Source of the DNA: Escherichia phage EC106
DNA length: 64,000 nt
Sequence record: ON210138.1
Direction: 5' to 3' (one strand)
The notes under the pieces: model-generated
Databases searched by the model: none
What the model was told of the DNA's origin: nothing
What the model saw: the letters and a program-made list of their open reading frames with translations, nothing else
Shown here: one piece after another, positions 9,380-43,523 of the stretch
Position numbering within the stretch: the stretch's first letter is position 1
How the letters are laid out: every line of letters begins with the position of its first letter
Program-made: the position numbers and the translations under genes

Positions 9380-9458
9380 CTTATTACTCTCTCTTGTTAG
9401 TTAATAAATCATTTTGTGAGGATATTCTAAGGGGCTTTGAAGCCCCTTGTCAAACACT

Positions 9459-14227: not shown

Positions 14228-15127
14228 TCAATCAAGGTTTGCTACAGTAACTTGACTATAATGTGTTAAGCTACGGTCTTTAGCTTCCCCTAAAGAGTTT
14301 GTAGTGTAAATGTGGTCAATACCATTGTCAAGAAGGTTTTCAACACCTTTAGAGAAGACACCATGTGTTACATAGAGTTCCACACGTTTTGCACCTGCTT
14401 TACGAAGATGTTTAGCTGCTTCTATGAATGTTCGACCACCATCACAGATATCGTCGAGAATCATAACAGTTTTATCTGTCAAATCAACATCATCAAGGAT
14501 TCGCATACCAGTAATTTCACCAGTCTTAAGGTTACGCACTTTAGACATTGTGATATATGGTTTATCCACCTCTTTAGCAGTCTCTGCAATCTTCTTAGAA
14601 GCACCTGCATCTGGGGCTACTAAGTAATCAACCAGAGGGTCATTCGCATAGTGAACTGCGACTTCCTTTTGAGGAATGCTTTGGAAGCAGTTAAATAGGT
14701 TGTCTGGTACATAACTGTGAGGGTCAACTGCACAGACTGCACCAAACCCCATTGCATTAACCTGTTTAGCAAAAACCTTCAAAGCTGCTGCATCACCTTT
14801 AAACATGTGACGGTCATATCGTGCATTCGGTAAGTAGTAAAAAATGACAGTCTTTAAGGCATATTCATGAGGAACTAAATCATCAATTGCTTCTTTAGCA
14901 AGTGCCACAGCAAACAGTGTGTCTTTGTCATAACCCTTTACAATCATAACCACATTGTTAATAGATGATGCTGCATAAGCAGTGAAATCAACAAGCTCTT
15001 GTGAAAAGTGTCCACCAATCTCACCAGAAGGGAACTGGATGATGTTAAGCTCTTCTTCATGAGACCCTTTTGTCGGTGAATGAATTATAACACGGATAGA
15101 TGTTTTCATAGTTTTACTCTCAATCAA
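14228..15127 (-). CDS. ribose-phosphate pyrophosphokinase (PRPP synthetase) family protein; candidate NARP1 Adps
   Basis: VAPDAGA and ILDDICDGGRT phosphoribosyl-binding motifs, YVTHGVFS. Confidence 0.8.
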   Translation of the reverse strand: MIESKTMKTSIRVIIHSPTKGSHEEELNIIQFPSGEIGGHFSQELVDFTAYAASSINNVVMIVKGYDKDTLFAVALAKEAIDDLVPHEYALKTVIFYYLPNARYDRHMFKGDAAALKVFAKQVNAMGFGAVCAVDPHSYVPDNLFNCFQSIPQKEVAVHYANDPLVDYLVAPDAGASKKIAETAKEVDKPYITMSKVRNLKTGEITGMRILDDVDLTDKTVMILDDICDGGRTFIEAAKHLRKAGAKRVELYVTHGVFSKGVENLLDNGIDHIYTTNSLGEAKDRSLTHYSQVTVANLD

Positions 15128-17289: not shown

Positions 17290-17353
17290 CTAGTTACCTC
17301 ACCAATAAAAAGGTGATGTAAGCCTATCAAGACCCACATCACCTTGTCAAGTT

Positions 17354-28487: not shown

Positions 28488-28559
28488 TATTTAAACCTCT
28501 ATCTCAATTTATGAAGAGTACCAATTCTAGTTTATTGATACCCTATTGTCAAATACTAA

Positions 28560-28709: not shown

Positions 28710-28961
28710 GATATTCTCCGATATACTTGATATTCAAACACATTTTCTTTCATTATAAACAGCCAACTAATGTTATACTGAGGCAGCGAAATGATGACTG
28801 TAATCATGCTTTGGTGGAAATCTTCTTTTATCTCAACTCCACCATTGCATTTCATGAGGAGCATTCTATAGAACCTATCAATCTTTGTCAAACACTCTTC
28901 CTGAAATTTATTTAAACTTTTTTCTTCAAAGAAGGGTGTGAACCCCTCTCTTTTATAGCTA

Positions 28962-31953: not shown

Positions 31954-32754
31954 TTAGTGCAGTTGGTCAGCATACTCTTTTTCAGCCATAGCTGAGATTT
32001 GCTTCACAAAATCATCACCGAAGTTAATGCGTAGTTTCTCTTCAATGATTGAAGCACCAATGTTCACCAAAACATCATTGATTGCTTGCATACTGACGCC
32101 ACCAGTCATCTCTTCAATGAACTCAATACTCACACCCATCATCTGTGAAAGTTGGATTAGTGCAACAATATTCATCATCGTAGAGATAGCTGGAATCATC
32201 AGTGCAACTTTCACCTGAAGAGGTTCTATATCAGCTACAGAGTCATTTTCAACAGCTTCTTCCAAAGACTCTTTAGTTTGCTGGATAATCTCCTTGATTC
32301 GTGGGTTTAGTTCTTCTACGCCCCAATCAAGTTTTTCATATCGTGAAAGTTTCTCTTCCATACGCTTCTCAAGAGCAGCCATAACAGCACTTGTTGATGA
32401 GATAAGCGTATCAATAATGAAATCAGTGTCCTTAGTCAGCAACAGTTCCTTATCTTCATCTGACATTCTGATATAGTCATTCTTTTGCATTTCATAAAAA
32501 ATGAACTCAGCAAGTGCATCAACACCAACCGCAATAGATGCCAGAGCAAGTGTTTTGTCGCAAAGCATCATGTTGACCTGTTCTGCAAAAGCACCGTTAT
32601 CAGACTTGTCTTCAGGCAAGTTATAGCTTGCAGGCATAAACTGTTCTGTGTAGTTATTACCACGAAGAATCATAGCCATGCTTTCTACGGCATTGATTAA
32701 AAATGCTTCGTCAACACCTTTCTCTTCAAGCATCTTTTCTACATCGTTATTCAT
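31954..32754 (-). CDS. hypothetical acidic early protein
   Basis: 266 aa, strongly Asp/Glu-rich; second gene of leftward early operon. Confidence 0.4.
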   Translation of the reverse strand: MNNDVEKMLEEKGVDEAFLINAVESMAMILRGNNYTEQFMPASYNLPEDKSDNGAFAEQVNMMLCDKTLALASIAVGVDALAEFIFYEMQKNDYIRMSDEDKELLLTKDTDFIIDTLISSTSAVMAALEKRMEEKLSRYEKLDWGVEELNPRIKEIIQQTKESLEEAVENDSVADIEPLQVKVALMIPAISTMMNIVALIQLSQMMGVSIEFIEEMTGGVSMQAINDVLVNIGASIIEEKLRINFGDDFVKQISAMAEKEYADQLH

Positions 32755-32755
32755 A

Positions 32756-33178
32756 TTATTTCTCTCTCAGTTGGTTAAGTTTCTTTCTAGAACATTTTAA
32801 GTTTTCGGATGAAGAAAAGTCAAGTGTCTTTTCAGAACGTGGATAGTAGTGCCTATCCCAAGAAGTTTCAACATCGTTAATCAGTGACGCTAGATTACAC
32901 AGGTCTGTACCACTTTGCAACCTCTTTTTAAGAGAATCTAGTAAAGCAACTGTGTCTTTAGCTTTACGTCTCGCTGTAGCAACATCTTTCATATGCTCAA
33001 ATACAGAGCATTTTAAGTCATCTTCATAGTTTTCAGACAACTCTATTTCATGTTGTATATCAACCATTCTCCTGTGATGGTGAGCATATTCCCGTTGAGC
33101 AGCAATGTCAAGTTCTTCCAACTTCTGCAAAGCTCTAACAAAGTCAGCTATGTCTGGGTGAACAAACATTTTCTGCAT
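32756..33178 (-). CDS. hypothetical early protein
   Basis: first gene leftward of the divergent control region. Confidence 0.4.
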   Translation of the reverse strand: MQKMFVHPDIADFVRALQKLEELDIAAQREYAHHHRRMVDIQHEIELSENYEDDLKCSVFEHMKDVATARRKAKDTVALLDSLKKRLQSGTDLCNLASLINDVETSWDRHYYPRSEKTLDFSSSENLKCSRKKLNQLREK

Positions 33179-33435
33179 GTAAGCCTCTTTTAAGTAACTA
33201 TTAAGTTTTAATCTTTTATCTTAACGTATTCTATACGTTATACTTTAAAGCTTTTTAAAAGCTATTAAATAATCTTTTAAGAGTTTTAAAGTATCTGTAT
33301 AGTTAAACTGTTAAGTAACCTTTTAAGTAAAAACCCACTTCGCAAAGATTAACACCTTGTCAAGTACATTGTCAACTTGCTTTTTATAATTTTTTGCAGT
33401 AATGTATGAGGTTAATGATTTTAGAGGGAGTAAAA
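33179..33435. promoter_or_regulatory. AT-rich divergent control region with repeated CTTTTAAG motifs, palindromes and TATAAT element
   Basis: CTTTTAAG at 33187, 33274, 33321; palindrome AACGTATTCTATACGTT 33223-33239; TTGTCA x2 and TATAAT at 33385-33390; SD AGGGAG at 33424-33429. Confidence 0.5.
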
Positions 33436-35619
33436 ATGGAAAACGTAGATTTTAAAAACTTACATTTGGTTGGTGATACAGAAACTGATGGTTTACTCCT
33501 TGAGTTCACTAAAGTGCACGTAATGGCCTTTGCAGACTATAAATCTGACGATGAAGAGCCACCTGTATGGGTCTTTACAGATGAGCCTATCCTCGGTCAC
33601 AAGTACACCAAGTACATTAAGGGTGGTTTACGTGAAGGTGTTGAGTTTGCGTTAAAGGCAAAACGACTTTGCATCCATAACGGTCTTGGTTATGACTGGT
33701 GGGTTTTTAATCACATTGCACCTGATTTATGGAACTTTGATAATCCAAAGTGTAAGCCGTGGAGTAATTTCTTTCAGGATTCTCTTATCCAGTCTCGTGT
33801 TCAGTGGATGGATAGACCAACTCCAAAGGGTTATAAAGGTGCTCATGGCTTGGCTGCATGGGGTGCTCGTGTTGGTGTTCGTAAGCCAGAGATTGAGCAT
33901 TGGGGTGTGTGGAATGCAGAAATCTTCACTCGTGTTGTAGAAGATATTCGTATTAACGCCAAAACTAAACGGGCACTTGATAACGAGTATCTCAAGCTTA
34001 AGAAGTGTGGTATAGACACTTATGAAACCTACATGCGAGCTAAAGAAACATCTTTCTGGATGAGTCAACAGGCTATCAATGGTTGGAAAGCTGATAAAGA
34101 ACTTATGGAGTTCCATGTAAAGGAACTTGACAAGTTGACTAATGAGCTTGCTTCAGAGGTTGAACCACATCTACCTCCAACTATTAAGACCAAAGGTAAA
34201 GTCACTGGAGAAGAGTTTGCGAAAGCTTGGAATGAGTATGTTGAAACATTTGGTCATGCAGATGGACTGAAGAGAATTACCAAGTACCCTAAGACAAAGT
34301 ATCGTCAGCAGGTACGTAATGGTGAGATGCAGACATACGAAATCAAACCATTTGGTAAGCCAACTACAAAGATTTTTAACATTGGAAAGAGAAATTGCTA
34401 TACACCAACTAACTCCGTAACTGGTGAAGAGTACAAGGAAGGCTTTGTAGCAATGAAGGATGCTCGTGCAATTTGCAATGAGTTGAACGCAAAGATTGGT
34501 AAGAAATGCAAAGACTGGAAGCCAGTAAAAACAGTCAAAACTGTGAAGTACTATAACAGCCACGTTGTTAACCACTTTGAACTTGAGTCAAGTCGCTACA
34601 CAGGTTTGATTGATGCACCATATACACCAATTGAGTTTGAAGTTTCTCGTATGACTCAGGTAGCAGTTGTTAAAGATTACTTGAAATCAGTTGGTTGGAT
34701 TCCAGATGACTGGAATTACAAGAAAGACTCAGATGGTCGCCCTGTCAAAGTTTGTCGTTTCAAAGACAATAAAAAGATGATTACAAAGCATCCTAAGTGG
34801 CAGGAAATGGTTGAGCGGTGTGGTTTGAGCTATGTTGAGCATGAAGGTGTACAGTACATTGAGCATAACTGGTCTGTGAAGAAGTACACAGATTTGCTTG
34901 AGCCTTGTTTAATCCGTACTTCACCAAAACTTACTGAATCATCTTACGATACGATTGAAGGTGAACTTGGACAGAAGATTGCGAAGTACTATACTTTGAT
35001 GCACCGACGCAGAACTATTGAGAACTCAAAGGACGACGAAAAAGGCTGGTTGAACCAGATTCGTCCAGATGGTCGCCTTAGTGCTGGTGCAATGGTGTTT
35101 GGTACTTCAACTGGACGTATGACGCAATATGGTATTGTAAACGTACCGTCTGGTGCTGCTGTCTATGGAGCACCTATGAGGGAGGTGTGGATTTGTGAGG
35201 AAGGGACTAACGTTGTCTCTGTTGATATGAACTCAGCCCAGCTAGTTCTTCTTTGTAACTTTATGGGTGATAAAGAGTCCACTAAAGCGGTAACACAAGG
35301 TAAAGAAGAGGTTGAGTTCATTCGTCAAGAAGATGGACGCTATTACTGCAAACACTTTGATGAGTACCTCAACCCAGAGATTGATAAGTACCTTCGCTAT
35401 GACTCTGAGAATGACCTGTACGTTGTCTATTCAGGGACTGATGCACATACACTGAACAGTATCTACTTTAGCTTGAACGATGAGCAGGATATCTTGACTT
35501 GTCGAGCTACTCAGGATGAGAATCTTCTTCATGAGATTAGCAAAGGTCGTAAGAAAGCTAAGAATGGTATCTATGCGTCAGTGGCGCATGTAAAACGTTG
35601 TGAATTGCTGGAAGCCTAA
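33436..35619 (+). CDS. family A DNA polymerase, N-terminal part (exon 1); ORF-track start 33406, likely start 33436 after SD
   Basis: 3'-5' exonuclease motif HLVGDTETDG, motif A VDMNSAQLVLL, motif B RKKAKNGIY near the end. Confidence 0.85.
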   Translation: MENVDFKNLHLVGDTETDGLLLEFTKVHVMAFADYKSDDEEPPVWVFTDEPILGHKYTKYIKGGLREGVEFALKAKRLCIHNGLGYDWWVFNHIAPDLWNFDNPKCKPWSNFFQDSLIQSRVQWMDRPTPKGYKGAHGLAAWGARVGVRKPEIEHWGVWNAEIFTRVVEDIRINAKTKRALDNEYLKLKKCGIDTYETYMRAKETSFWMSQQAINGWKADKELMEFHVKELDKLTNELASEVEPHLPPTIKTKGKVTGEEFAKAWNEYVETFGHADGLKRITKYPKTKYRQQVRNGEMQTYEIKPFGKPTTKIFNIGKRNCYTPTNSVTGEEYKEGFVAMKDARAICNELNAKIGKKCKDWKPVKTVKTVKYYNSHVVNHFELESSRYTGLIDAPYTPIEFEVSRMTQVAVVKDYLKSVGWIPDDWNYKKDSDGRPVKVCRFKDNKKMITKHPKWQEMVERCGLSYVEHEGVQYIEHNWSVKKYTDLLEPCLIRTSPKLTESSYDTIEGELGQKIAKYYTLMHRRRTIENSKDDEKGWLNQIRPDGRLSAGAMVFGTSTGRMTQYGIVNVPSGAAVYGAPMREVWICEEGTNVVSVDMNSAQLVLLCNFMGDKESTKAVTQGKEEVEFIRQEDGRYYCKHFDEYLNPEIDKYLRYDSENDLYVVYSGTDAHTLNSIYFSLNDEQDILTCRATQDENLLHEISKGRKKAKNGIYASVAHVKRCELLEA

Positions 35620-35891
35620 GTCTGTAAAGATATGGTAATCAGCAGCGAAGTCTCTGTTAGGACTCCTAAAGCAAATAACATAACTATAGAGATTCCTAAC
35701 AGAGAAACGTTCAGAGACTATCGAAAAGCATACTTAATGTATGAACTGAGTAGAGTAGGGTGGTAAGCTAATGACCATTCCCAAGTGCAACGGTAGTATT
35801 ACTACTACGTGATATAGTCCGACACTCCGTAGAAATGCGGAGAAGTTCATAAGAGAACTGGTACACCTTGCGAGTGTATTGACCAGATGTA
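35575..35891 (+). other. putative ORF-less group I intron (or split-gene junction) in DNA polymerase gene; boundaries approximate
   Basis: polymerase motif B ends exon 1 and GAGDEK continuation starts 35892; about 270-310 nt of structured non-coding sequence between. Confidence 0.5.
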
Positions 35892-36446
35892 TTGTTCGGT
35901 GCAGGTGATGAGAAGTTTGCTAAGACGATTAAAGCTGCAACTACTCAGGAAGGTGCGCTGACTAAACAGACTTACTTTATACGTTTGCCTAAAATTAAGA
36001 AGCTGTTAGATGACTTGGAAGCTGACTACAAAGCAACTAAAAAGGCACTTGAAGAGGTGTTTGGTAAGACTGCTGCAATCTCTAAAGGGGGTTTTGTAAA
36101 GGTTGCTGGAGCTTGGTTGTGGTGTAAATCTCCACATAAGTTATTGAATTATTTGCTCATGGGTTCGGAAAGTCAGATTCAGAACGAGGCAATTAACCTT
36201 GCTTGCCGTCGTATGATTGACGAAGGTTTGATGAAGTTGAACGGTCGTAAACCAGCCATAGGTGCTCGTTTATTGTGCTCCTATCACGACGAGACAAGTT
36301 GGGAATGTCCAGAAAGTATGACGGCAGAGGTGAAGGCTGTCACTGATTGGTATTACGGACAAGCCTCTAAGAACTTAGGGCTAAAGAGTGAAACACTGGT
36401 AACTGGTACTGGTAAGGTTGGTAAAAGCTGGTATGAGGTACATTGA
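35892..36446 (+). CDS. family A DNA polymerase, C-terminal part (exon 2)
   Basis: LFGAGDEKFAKTI continues motif B; motif C SYHDE; C-terminal ...YEVH. Confidence 0.85.
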   Translation: MFGAGDEKFAKTIKAATTQEGALTKQTYFIRLPKIKKLLDDLEADYKATKKALEEVFGKTAAISKGGFVKVAGAWLWCKSPHKLLNYLLMGSESQIQNEAINLACRRMIDEGLMKLNGRKPAIGARLLCSYHDETSWECPESMTAEVKAVTDWYYGQASKNLGLKSETLVTGTGKVGKSWYEVH

Positions 36447-36958
36447 TGCGAGATTGTGGATTCACACATGAACAGTTAAAGTCTTGGTTAAACTATGACC
36501 CCGAAACAGGGGTCTTAACGTGGATTGGCAGACCTCCACATAGTAGTAGGGTGGTTATTGGGAGCCAAGCCGGAGCAATCAAGCGCACAAGGTCTGGTGT
36601 GTATATGCACACACAGATTTTAGGATACAGGACAGGCAATCACCGAATTGCTTGGTTCTGGATGACAGGTAAGTGGCCTGATAAACACATTGACCATAAA
36701 GATGGAGATGGTTTGAATAACGCTTGGGACAATCTAAGAGAGGCCACAAAAGAGCAGAACATGTCCAATAGGAGACAACCTAGAACATCAAAAAACTTAA
36801 AAGGTACAAGTAGAAGCAAGTCTGGTAAGTGGATAGCCCAGATTAACCATAATGGCAAGACTATACATATAGGGACATACACAACAGAAGAAGAAGCCCA
36901 TAAAGCTTACTGTGAAGCTGCTATTAAACTCCACGGAGAGTTTGCAAAACTAAGTTGA
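36443..36958 (+). CDS. HNH homing endonuclease with AP2-type DNA-binding domain
   Basis: HIDHKDGDGLNNAWDNL HNH motif; C-terminal GKWIAQI...YTTEEEAHKAY AP2-like; start overlaps polymerase stop. Confidence 0.75.
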   Translation: MMRDCGFTHEQLKSWLNYDPETGVLTWIGRPPHSSRVVIGSQAGAIKRTRSGVYMHTQILGYRTGNHRIAWFWMTGKWPDKHIDHKDGDGLNNAWDNLREATKEQNMSNRRQPRTSKNLKGTSRSKSGKWIAQINHNGKTIHIGTYTTEEEAHKAYCEAAIKLHGEFAKLS

Positions 36959-37009
36959 CAAGGTGCTCAGGGAAGAGTACCTTATACTATATCTTGTATA
37001 GGAGGGCTT

Positions 37010-37219
37010 ATGAGCCACCGTGGAAGAACCCATGCAGCGATGATGAAAGGTGCTTCAAAGGAAACTATCAAGAACCGTAAGCAGAAGTTGTTTGAGAGAA
37101 TGAACAGGCTAATTGACAATTCATCTCTTTCAGGTTCTGAGAAGGTTTTCTTGAAAGGTAATCTGAAAAGCATTGCACAAGAACTTATTGACATTGAGTA
37201 TTGGAGACATCAAAAATGA
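37010..37219 (+). CDS. hypothetical protein
   Basis: co-oriented small ORF. Confidence 0.35.
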   Translation: MSHRGRTHAAMMKGASKETIKNRKQKLFERMNRLIDNSSLSGSEKVFLKGNLKSIAQELIDIEYWRHQK

Positions 37220-40009: not shown

Positions 40010-40222
40010 ATGGCTCTTAAAAAGTTACATCCCAGAAGCGGTTATGGTAAGATAATTGATGATACAGACGGCTTTACAGTCTTTACAGTTATCTGTCAAG
40101 ATGATTCACAGATTGAAAAGGCTCTTGATGATTATCTTAATGATGAACGTGAAAAGGTTAGGGCTACAAACATAGATTCATTGATTGACACTTCACGCAA
40201 ACGGAAGAAGAAAGATGAATGA
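40010..40222 (+). CDS. hypothetical protein
   Basis: co-oriented small ORF. Confidence 0.35.
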   Translation: MALKKLHPRSGYGKIIDDTDGFTVFTVICQDDSQIEKALDDYLNDEREKVRATNIDSLIDTSRKRKKKDE

Positions 40223-40514
40223 GGTTTTTGACCCTTATGCCCCACAAGATGATTGGGAGGCTGATAGAGAGGCTGAAATGGAGAGTTATATTTGTCCAAT
40301 GGATGTAGACGAAATGAGAGACTTCGTTGCACATCGTTTTAAGAGAGAGATTAAATCCAGAGGTCTTTCTCAAGAGCAAGTCGCTAAAATTTGTGGTATC
40401 TCTCAAGCTCGTGTATCCAACATAATCCACCTCACTGGGAATGTCTCTCTTGAGTATATGTTGGAAGTATGTGAAAAATTTGGTGTTAATTTTAATTTAA
40501 GGTTGGCAGACTAA
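40185..40514 (+). CDS. helix-turn-helix DNA-binding protein (XRE-like)
   Basis: LSQEQVAKICGISQARVSNI HTH. Confidence 0.45.
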   Translation: MTLHANGRRKMNEVFDPYAPQDDWEADREAEMESYICPMDVDEMRDFVAHRFKREIKSRGLSQEQVAKICGISQARVSNIIHLTGNVSLEYMLEVCEKFGVNFNLRLAD

Positions 40515-43108: not shown

Positions 43109-43111
43109 AAC

Positions 43112-43144
43112 AAAAAAAAAAAAAGGCTCCCGTAAAAAGGAGCC
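43112..43144 (-). terminator. rho-independent terminator at convergence point (minus strand strong, plus strand weak)
   Basis: A13 run then GGCTCC-N8-GGAGCC hairpin. Confidence 0.65.
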
Positions 43145-43151
43145 TTAAACT

Positions 43152-43523
43152 TTATTTTTCAGTATTCTTTGTGTTCTTTTCAGTAATAGCTTGGAGGGCT
43201 GATACTGATTGAGCCAGATTGTTCACACTGTCAGAGAATTTATCAAGAGTTTTGGTAAGTTTTGCATTCTCACCCTTAACATTCTCTAACTGGACTTTCT
43301 GGTTCTCCATCCCTAACTGAAGCATTCTCATGTCAGACTGTAAGTCACGAATAGCTGAATAGTTACTTTTGGAATAATTATCTAGCTGCTGTAACTTTGT
43401 TGTGACAGACACTTCTTGCTTACCACTTGAAACTTGTATCGTGGTATACATCCCAATAACACTAAAAATACCAACAACAATTGCACCAATATTGTTTTTA
43501 AAAGCTTCCTCTAGCCACTTCAT
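43152..43523 (-). CDS. membrane-anchored coiled-coil protein (possible lysis or fibre-associated)
   Basis: N-terminal TM helix then heptad-rich soluble domain. Confidence 0.4.
   Translation of the reverse strand: MKWLEEAFKNNIGAIVVGIFSVIGMYTTIQVSSGKQEVSVTTKLQQLDNYSKSNYSAIRDLQSDMRMLQLGMENQKVQLENVKGENAKLTKTLDKFSDSVNNLAQSVSALQAITEKNTKNTEK

Follow-up and report, generated by a model that had tools for sequence, protein, structure and literature searches.

The spacer between the divergent replication operons of the Felix O1-like phage EC106, a putative control region with a repeat-bearing leader

Within a stretch of 64,000 nucleotides from Escherichia phage EC106 (sequence record ON210138.1), hereafter called the window, we analysed the 257-bp intergenic spacer that separates a leftward gene for a 140-aa protein (start codon 33178-33176) from the rightward gene for DNA polymerase (ATG at 33436). 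The window belongs to a Felixounavirus, i.e. a Felix O1-like myovirus: a 4-kb query around the spacer matched 263 phage records, almost all of them Felixounavirus, with best matches 95-97% identical. Members of this genus infect Salmonella, E. coli and Shigella. The leftward block consists, in order, of the 140-aa gene (32756-33178, minus strand), a 266-aa gene, and genes for dNMP kinase, primase/helicase and exonuclease, and the rightward block of the genes for DNA polymerase, ligase and DHFR. A preliminary description of this DNA had placed leftward early genes opposite rightward replication genes; judged by their gene content, however, both flanks are replication and nucleotide-metabolism operons alike. 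We found that this spacer is probably a divergent control region with back-to-back promoters of the host type, and that its predicted leftward leader carries an array of short repeat units and a conserved palindrome with a vocabulary of motifs that returns in the leader of a second long operon.

The spacer is the counterpart of the intergenic region between genes 96 and 97 of phage Felix O1, from which it differs at one position. Divergent promoters for the replication genes were assumed to lie there in Felix O1 (Whichard et al. 2010, Viruses 2:710; PMC3185647), and the same genome paper reported that no sigma-70-like (host-like) promoter sequence was found in this spacer and that the phage has no RNA polymerase gene, while reverse transcription PCR showed genes 96 and 97 from early infection onward (PMC3185647). 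The repeat array, the palindrome and the likeness to the gene 40/41 spacer are not described in that paper; specific hexamers and a shared leader module are proposed here.

Divergent promoter candidates

Homologous spacers were aligned from Felixounavirus, Suspvirus and Mooglevirus (alignment A1) and were also read in three Erwinia Kolesnikvirus phages and in Pectobacterium phage Arno162. Promoters were searched with a simple sigma-70 position-weight-matrix (PWM) scan, for which the 99.99th percentile score in the window was 9.94. The best minus-strand match in the spacer, named P_L1 here, is TTGACA-N18-TAATCT with a score of 10.65 and a -35 hexamer matching at 6/6 positions (Table 1). Its equivalent was also the best minus-strand match in all seven relatives scanned, which were Suspvirus, Mooglevirus, ESh22, the three Erwinia Kolesnikvirus phages and Arno162. 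The -10 hexamer is TAATCT in Felixounavirus, Suspvirus and ESh22 and TAGTCT in Mooglevirus, and the counterpart in Arno162 is TTGACA-N17-TAGGCT. The Erwinia phages Hena2 and Ep030 share identical hexamers (TTGACA/TACATT), between which lie 17-bp spacers unrelated in sequence. Because the hexamers are kept while the spacer drifts, P_L1 bears the signature of a real promoter, from which transcription would start near 33339.

Table 1. Features of the spacer between the 140-aa gene and the DNA polymerase gene (positions in the window; A1, alignment of three genera)
Feature	Position	Strand	Remarks
Intergenic control region (putative)	33179..33435	both	257 bp; from open reading frame (ORF) layout and annotation of relatives
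Two further repeat units (33198-33205 and 33187-33194)	33187..33205	-	last one overlaps Shine-Dalgarno AAGAGG (33189..33184) of the 140-aa gene
Long imperfect dyad	33220..33316	both	about 97 bp, centre near 33267; folding z-scores only about -2
Palindrome TAACGTAT-TCT-ATACGTTA	33222..33240	both	8-bp arms; 7-bp core AACGTAT-TCT-ATACGTT at 33223-33239
Core CTTwAnAG array	33243..33327	-	unit starts 33327, 33315, 33302, 33291, 33281 (spacings 12, 13, 11, 10 bp) and 33250; weaker near 33269 and 33260
Dyad AGCTTTT-T-AAAAGCT	33249..33263	both	includes AAAGCTTT palindrome (33247-33254)
P_L1 -10 hexamer TAATCT (predicted)	33346..33351	-	T-12, A-11 and T-7 invariant
Second TTGACA box (TTGACAAGG)	33358..33363	-	12 bp downstream of the first, inside the P_L1 spacer; invariant in A1
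P_L1 -35 hexamer TTGACA (predicted)	33370..33375	-	top minus-strand sigma-70 PWM match; invariant in A1
A/T tract upstream of P_L1 -35, minus strand AAAAAATTATAAAAAGCAAG	33376..33395	-	proximal part AAAAAGCAAG invariant in A1
P_R -35 hexamer TTGCTT (candidate)	33377..33382	+	1 bp from P_L1 -35, back-to-back; invariant in A1
TATAAT	33385..33390	+	Felixounavirus-specific; in the P_R spacer and in the A/T tract upstream of P_L1
P_R -10 hexamer TAATGT (candidate)	33400..33405	+	TAATGT or TAGGGT; T-12, A-11 and T-7 invariant
Polymerase ribosome-binding site GAGGGAG (33424-33430) and ATG (33436)	33424..33438	+	AGAGGGAGT and ATG invariant in A1; ribosome-binding site annotated in phage Mushroom

What had been described as tandem TTGTCA elements are thus, read on the minus strand, TTGACA boxes, the upstream one being the -35 hexamer of P_L1. 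Neither box varies in A1, in contrast to the 3-5 bp that separate them, and no usable -10 hexamer was found 16-18 bp downstream of the second box. The heptamer TTGTCAA occurs at 33357 and 33369 and is not enriched across the window (30 copies vs 22 expected). A tandem TTGACA pair also stands at the promoter of Felix O1 gene 41, where it is conserved and the stretch between the boxes is again variable. A further tandem TTGACAA site at 14313-14343 was considered as a related element and set aside as unrelated, lying as it does inside a coding sequence. The A/T tract upstream of the P_L1 -35 hexamer may represent a proximal UP-element subsite; it includes TATAAT on the plus strand, and the gene-41 promoter is likewise preceded by a TAAAAA(A)G tract.

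On the plus strand, the candidate P_R has the form TTGCTT-N17-TAATGT, with a spacer whose length of 17 bp is constant and whose sequence varies across the three genera of A1. The back-to-back arrangement of the two -35 hexamers is also found in Hena2 (TGTCAA-G-TTGTAT, 1 bp apart) and in Arno162 (5 bp apart). We regard it as plausible, but not established, that P_R is a weak rightward promoter; its transcripts would start near 33412, about 24 nt before the polymerase ATG. The position of this ATG at 33436 follows from the relatives, since these carry one-base indels that separate the upstream in-frame ATGs (33406, 33415) from it.

The preliminary description had further listed a perfect TATAAT. 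The hexamer is present, yet no -35-like hexamer lies 16-18 bp upstream of it (the sequences there being AAGTAC, CAAGTA and AGTACA), and neither a consensus scan nor the top PWM matches include it. In Suspvirus and Mooglevirus it is replaced by GAAACT, GAAGAA/GAAGAT or CATAAA. TATAAT is depleted across the window (27 copies vs 44.6 expected from dinucleotide shuffles), and a single copy in the spacer is about what composition predicts. TATAAT at this site is probably not a conserved -10 hexamer.

In nine Felixounavirus genomes 11 of the 257 spacer columns vary (4.3%), compared with 4.5%, 7.6%, 12.9% and 18.9% in adjacent coding sequences. The variable sites fall in the loop of the palindrome, in the stretch between the two TTGACA boxes and in the 5' untranslated region of the polymerase gene. 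Within the genus this conservation is not exceptional by itself, because the entire neighbourhood is a low-diversity core.

The repeat-bearing leader and its relative at gene 41

The spacer has a GC content of 25.7% compared with 39.2% for the window, and positions 33189-33288 have both the lowest GC of any stretch (18%) and the lowest duplex stability of any 100 bp in the 64 kb (-105 vs -128 +/- 5 kcal/mol). No other DNA in the window is as rich in A and T as the leader of about 160 nt predicted from the P_L1 start, which holds about 8-10 copies of an 8-bp unit, CTTwAnAG. In mRNA sense the units read CTTAAAAG, CTTAACAG, CTATACAG, CTTTAAAA, CTTAAAAG and CTTTAAAG. Eight are found on the minus strand and one on the plus strand, the latter being the palindromic copy. 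The units form dyads, namely CTTTAAAG, CTTAAAAG-C-CTTTTAAG and AGCTTTT-T-AAAAGCT. Homologous arrays are located directly downstream of P_L1 in Arno162 (six units, 12-13 bp apart) and in the Erwinia phages.

All motifs listed in the preliminary description (CTTTTAAG repeats, palindrome, AAAGCTTT, TTGTCA and TATAAT) were found where it had placed them, and its three copies of CTTTTAAG in an AT-rich region of about 250 bp were likewise confirmed. These copies, at 33187, 33274 and 33320, are clustered beyond chance: there are 15 in the window against 5.0 expected, 3 of which lie inside 141 bp of the spacer. They are, however, part of the array of about eight CTTwAnAG units, and the first of them overlaps the Shine-Dalgarno sequence AAGAGG, at which CCTCT is invariant in A1. 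Three of the six window copies of TTAAGTAA are also in the spacer. For the relaxed unit CTNTWAAG, 6 sites were counted in 150 bp where about 0.17 are expected, corresponding to a Poisson probability of about 3e-8 per interval of that size and about 1e-5 after the window had been scanned. CTNTWAAG is also over-represented genome-wide (78 copies vs 30.7 expected), for which, as for the depletion of TATAAT, codon or amino-acid effects are possible. Tandem Repeats Finder reported in the spacer just a weak 2-copy repeat of 21 bp (78%). Phased A-tracts or intrinsic curvature were considered and dropped, as the Fourier power at 10-12 bp was not above that of shuffled sequences (830/2000 shuffles reached the observed value).

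Downstream of the core array lies a palindrome which reads TAACGTAT-AGA-ATACGTTA in mRNA sense. Seven base pairs of it are paired in 100% of six distinct sequences, with two positions changed in a compensatory manner (AACGTAT, TACGTAT, TATGTAT); 2 of 500 shuffles matched this. The loop is free (TCT or GTT). In Salmonella phage SLAM_phiST56 (L018) the loop is exactly inverted at the equivalent of 33230-33232 (AGA for TCT) with unchanged arms, which looks like a flip mediated by a hairpin or cruciform. No other copy of the palindrome with at most one mismatch was found in the window, so that we abandoned the idea of a regulon defined by such copies. On its minus strand the palindrome carries TAGAAT (33233..33228), which corresponds in position to the -10 hexamer of P_L2, a further leftward promoter predicted after the array in Erwinia and Pectobacterium phages. 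In Arno162 the form of P_L2 is TTAACA-N18-TAGAAT, and the Erwinia phages have TTGACT-N18-TAAGAT or TATGAT; in the window TAGAAT is kept inside the palindrome and no -35 box is evident.

The dyad AGCTTTT-T-AAAAGCT is conserved in most relatives, and single substitutions in EcSzw_1 and ESh22 break pairs of it without compensation. The long imperfect dyad was rejected as a functional hairpin or cruciform. Besides its modest z-scores, many of its pairs are G-U pairs on the plus strand only and would be A-C mismatches in the leftward mRNA, and RNAalifold did not predict it from the minus-strand alignment. It probably arises incidentally from repeat units that are themselves nearly palindromic. In the minimum-free-energy fold the 5' end of the leader sequesters the Shine-Dalgarno sequence; this idea was also discarded, the pairing not being conserved in Mooglevirus when compared by eye.

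A related leader was found outside the window, in the spacer between genes 40 and 41 of Felix O1 (AF320576, 21437-21664; L012 938-1165), where it heads the operon of structural genes. In this module two TTGACAA boxes stand in tandem at a distance of 12 bp, accompanied by a TAGnnT -10 hexamer, by ACTTAGAAGATA and ACTTAAAAGGTT units and ACAGATA, by a palindrome with 7-bp arms and by a Shine-Dalgarno context of CTTTTAAGAGG. Both leaders thus follow the same order of a tandem TTGACA promoter, ACTTAnAAG units, a palindrome, more units and a Shine-Dalgarno sequence. The palindromes differ, that of gene 41 being AGATATC-TTTCTG-GATATCT. The 14-mer ATCTTTTATCTTAA is present in the gene-41 leader and, in the opposite orientation, in the window. 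A local alignment of the two Felix O1 leaders including their promoters scored 28, compared with 12.6 +/- 2.1 for shuffled sequences (0/1000 reached the score). When only the leaders were aligned, the scores were 20 in Felix O1 (0/1000 shuffles reaching it), 28 in Arno162 (0/1000) and 16 in Hena2 (5/1000).

The gene-41 leader is almost invariant in three genera except for the variable stretch between its TTGACA boxes, and in Arno162 the two leaders are almost the same over their first 25 nt. That the two leaders evolve in concert within each lineage was considered and not retained, being clear only in Arno162. Because the scores for Felix O1 and for Hena2 are as high across lineages as within genomes, we claim for the two leaders only what their sequences suggest, a shared vocabulary of motifs. 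For the gene-41 promoter P41 itself, the published proposal combines the first TTGACA box with TATAGG at a spacing of 15 bp (PMC3185647). The conservation across genera is fitted better by TTGACA-N17-TAGnnT than by this TTGACA-N15-TATAGG.

Neighbouring genes and other elements of the window

In 202 phage records the 140-aa protein is conserved at 99% identity or more, and only 9 homologs of it were found. It had no Pfam match and belongs to a PHROG of unknown function. Its AlphaFold model is a long helical hairpin (pLDDT 71), for which no fold match in the PDB was obtained at E <= 0.001. The family and fold searches being uninformative, we dropped this neighbour as a regulator or initiator. 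The next gene encodes a 266-aa protein (31954-32754, minus strand) which many records, and also PHROG 4251, name 'minor tail protein'. This label looks doubtful because the gene is located in the middle of the replication operon and its product had no Pfam match.

In the rightward block the polymerase gene is interrupted by a group I intron at 35567-35842 on the plus strand (Rfam RF00028, 62.9 bits, E = 1e-14). It was the only hit, with none in the spacer, when positions 32500-37200 were scanned with the Rfam 15 covariance models (E <= 1). The N-terminal part of the polymerase is a 727-aa ORF (33436-35619), or 737 aa if counted from an in-frame ATG farther upstream, at 33406. A 184-aa ORF (PF00476) makes up the C-terminal part and a gene for an HNH homing endonuclease comes after it, the two ORFs lying at 35892-36446 and 36443-36958. 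The polymerase gene of Felix O1 is unsplit, and in many relatives about 490 bp are inserted in addition, with an annotation as endonuclease VII. Further along the rightward operon, at 40185-40514 (plus strand), is a gene for a 109-aa helix-turn-helix protein of the Cro/C1 type (PF01381, E = 6e-10), which may be regarded as a candidate reader of the palindrome.

The rightward block ends at 43109-43151 with an A-run, the hairpin GGCTCCCGTAAAAAGGAGCC and then TTAAACT, and the adjoining ORF (43152-43523) is on the minus strand. The structure corresponds to t79/t80 of Felix O1, which are listed there as a bidirectional pair of terminators. An intrinsic (rho-independent) terminator was not found in 33179-33435, and the sole site in 32600-33700, at 32675-32691, is within a coding sequence. 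Strong sigma-70-like promoters were also detected within the leftward block on the minus strand, at 9424-9453, 17321-17350, 28524-28552 and 28863-28891. These have the form (A/G)TTGACAA...TAGAAT or TAGGCT. The spacer of the one at 9424-9453 is a GC-rich hairpin, GGGGCTTCAAAGCCCC, so that a terminator and a promoter overlap.

Interpretation and comparison with known systems

Taken as a whole, the explanation that we think rather likely is one in which divergent promoters are combined with an array and a palindrome serving as DNA sites of a single factor. Because the phage encodes no RNA polymerase, we assume that the sigma-70 RNA polymerase of the host acts at the spacer. P_L1 would fire leftward and transcribe the repeat leader down to the Shine-Dalgarno sequence of the 140-aa gene, and P_R would fire rightward, weakly, toward the polymerase gene. 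The earlier suggestion of divergent promoters on both strands is in this way upheld by gene layout and comparative footprinting, although the specific elements it named had been mis-assigned. Operators, which it had also suspected, are made plausible by the repeat array and by the compensatory changes in the palindrome.

One trans-acting factor, encoded by phage or host, might read the array and the palindrome at both long operons. The unit vocabulary recurs at the same promoter-proximal position at two loci in three lineages, and we therefore suggest a common trans-acting reader and a regulatory role rather than AT-rich filler. Bound to the array at about +10 to +100 of P_L1, such a factor would be in the position of a roadblock or repressor. 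The array would also be the upstream region of the proximal leftward promoter P_L2, which is clear in the Erwinia and Pectobacterium relatives and degenerate in the window. We favour DNA sites over RNA sites because the units are dyads, inversion of the loop is tolerated, the palindrome coincides with the -10 hexamer of the relatives and the array fits both a roadblock and an upstream region of P_L2. That the array and palindrome are indeed binding sites through which one factor co-regulates the two long operons is nevertheless a tentative proposal, and we would put it below even chances.

Several observations weigh against this explanation. The -10 hexamer of P_L1 matches at just 3/6 positions, although the key T-12, A-11 and T-7 are present, and about 100 sites in the window score as P_L1 does (9 or more), many of them inside genes. 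The hexamers of P_R match at 4/6 and 4/6 positions, its PWM score of 5.06 is at the level of other AT-rich matches in the spacer, and its -35 hexamer overlaps the conserved tract upstream of P_L1, so that its conservation is not independent evidence. Conservation also has to be read against a neighbourhood of low diversity, in which more than 200 genomes share the 140-aa protein and the N-terminus of the polymerase at 99% identity or more. The analysis identified no candidate for the binding protein, and the 140-aa protein was without an informative fold match. In the searchable literature we found no transcription starts, transcriptomes or origins for Felixounavirus and no binding of RNA polymerase or a regulator at the locus; a PhageMaP preprint on phage Bas63 gives fitness at the level of genes only. 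Finally, units that point strictly leftward within transcribed leaders fit a role at the RNA level equally well.

Such a role is the strongest of the alternatives, though we consider it unlikely. The array and hairpin of the leader RNA of both long operons would bind a factor or RNA polymerase, either for processive antitermination past the many internal terminators, as at lambda nut or HK022 put sites, or as an operator of translation or stability, comparable to the AU-rich leader of T4 gene 32 or to an RNase III site. In favour of this, the orientation of the units is that of the mRNA throughout (8 minus vs the 1 palindromic plus), arrays are present in three lineages in the leaders transcribed ahead of both long operons, the final unit runs into the Shine-Dalgarno sequence, and compensatory changes preserve the hairpin arms. 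Both operons also hold multiple rho-independent terminators, and the Felix O1 genome paper states that the timing of transcription and the passage through these many terminators are unknown (PMC3185647). The loop of the hairpin, however, is not conserved (AGA, AAC, and inverted UCU in SLAM_phiST56), and recognition of a specific loop of the boxB type is therefore disfavoured. Folding is weak (z of about -2), the consensus fold in mRNA sense reaches -14.6 kcal/mol with little covariation, and there was no Rfam match. For a nut-type site, the position in the leaders of two long operons fits and the stem is conserved, but the loop is not, and nothing resembling boxA was recognised. Nor was a protein like N or Q identified, and units with dyad symmetry make more sense on double-stranded DNA.

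Less probable still is that the spacer is an origin of replication, or an origin as well, where transcription from P_L1 or P_L2 would open or prime the least stable duplex and the repeats would act as iteron-like or unwinding elements. The preliminary description had mentioned an origin as a possibility, for which we found no positive evidence beyond AT-richness. The location between the primase/helicase and polymerase operons would suit an origin, as would the minimum of GC and duplex stability, the direct repeats and palindromes, and the tandem leftward promoters that flank the AT-rich array in relatives. The cumulative GC skew also has a local minimum at the spacer. The sign of the skew, however, changes at 33 kb and again at 43 kb together with gene orientation, and at four-fold degenerate sites the GC skew of the coding strand is about zero in all three gene blocks (0.02, -0.06 and -0.08). 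Since the skew vanishes at these sites, the switch is a coding effect, and we rejected GC skew as evidence for an origin. A search by regular expression found no DnaA boxes in 32.5-34 kb; sites for IHF, Fis and CRP were looked for by eye only, with nothing convincing. The 8-bp cores are spaced at 10-13 bp, unlike iterons of 17-22 bp, and are barely detected by Tandem Repeats Finder, and no recognisable initiator adjoins the spacer. The paralogous module at the head of the structural-gene operon fits regulation better, although two origins linked to promoters would still be possible.

That the spacer holds promoters only, its repeats and palindromes being incidental to an AT-rich spacer or generic upstream or curved DNA (for RNA polymerase or H-NS) with no specific factor, is very improbable: short A/T words do recur easily at 18-25% GC, A-tract phasing is not significant, Tandem Repeats Finder detects almost nothing and the long dyad is marginally above shuffles, but the clustering of units survives the expectation from local composition, all units share one strand orientation, their vocabulary occupies the matching promoter-proximal site in four lineages at two loci per genome, the palindrome is kept by compensatory changes, and the spacer is no more variable than the adjoining coding DNA.

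The preferred reading, divergent promoters with an array and palindrome as DNA sites, makes the spacer a familiar kind of region, a divergent promoter/operator region in a heavily sampled genus, in which the shared repeat leader would be only mildly surprising. It is conceivable, but we think doubtful, that the array and palindrome are instead a cis element of Ounavirinae that has not been described before and that heads each long operon, acting as an antitermination or timing switch for a phage factor or as the unwinding or priming zone of an origin primed by the host RNA polymerase. Felix O1-like phages are widely used for typing of Salmonella and E. coli, for biocontrol and for engineering. 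The comparison yields proposed hexamers for both divergent promoters, a correction concerning TATAAT and a repeat module common to the leaders of two long operons, and these are relevant to the insertion of payloads beside the polymerase gene.

The arrangement may be compared with the pL and pR operons of phage lambda, where two operons carry matching cis elements linked to their promoters, the OL/OR operators and the nutL/nutR sites, which are read by common trans-acting factors. As in lambda, the elements described here would be situated in leaders that are transcribed as part of long operons with terminators. Unlike in lambda, there is no sequence similarity and no boxA/boxB, the loop of the spacer hairpin is unconstrained, and no homolog of the repressor, N or Q was identified. 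The phage is moreover virulent, and its two matching modules sit at separate divergent spacers. A second comparison is offered by the primary origin of phage T7, which consists of the tandem promoters 1.1A/1.1B and an AT-rich region; oriF and oriG of phage T4 are further origins for comparison. The promoters of the EC106 spacer are, unlike those of T7, predicted to be of the host sigma-70 type and not of the phage RNA polymerase type, and skew gives no support. Like the T7 origin, the tandem promoters of the relatives flank a very AT-rich stretch, and the phage has a T7-like gp4-type primase-helicase together with a family A polymerase. The spacer appears, in its layout, compatible with the architecture of a promoter-primed origin of the T7/T4 type.

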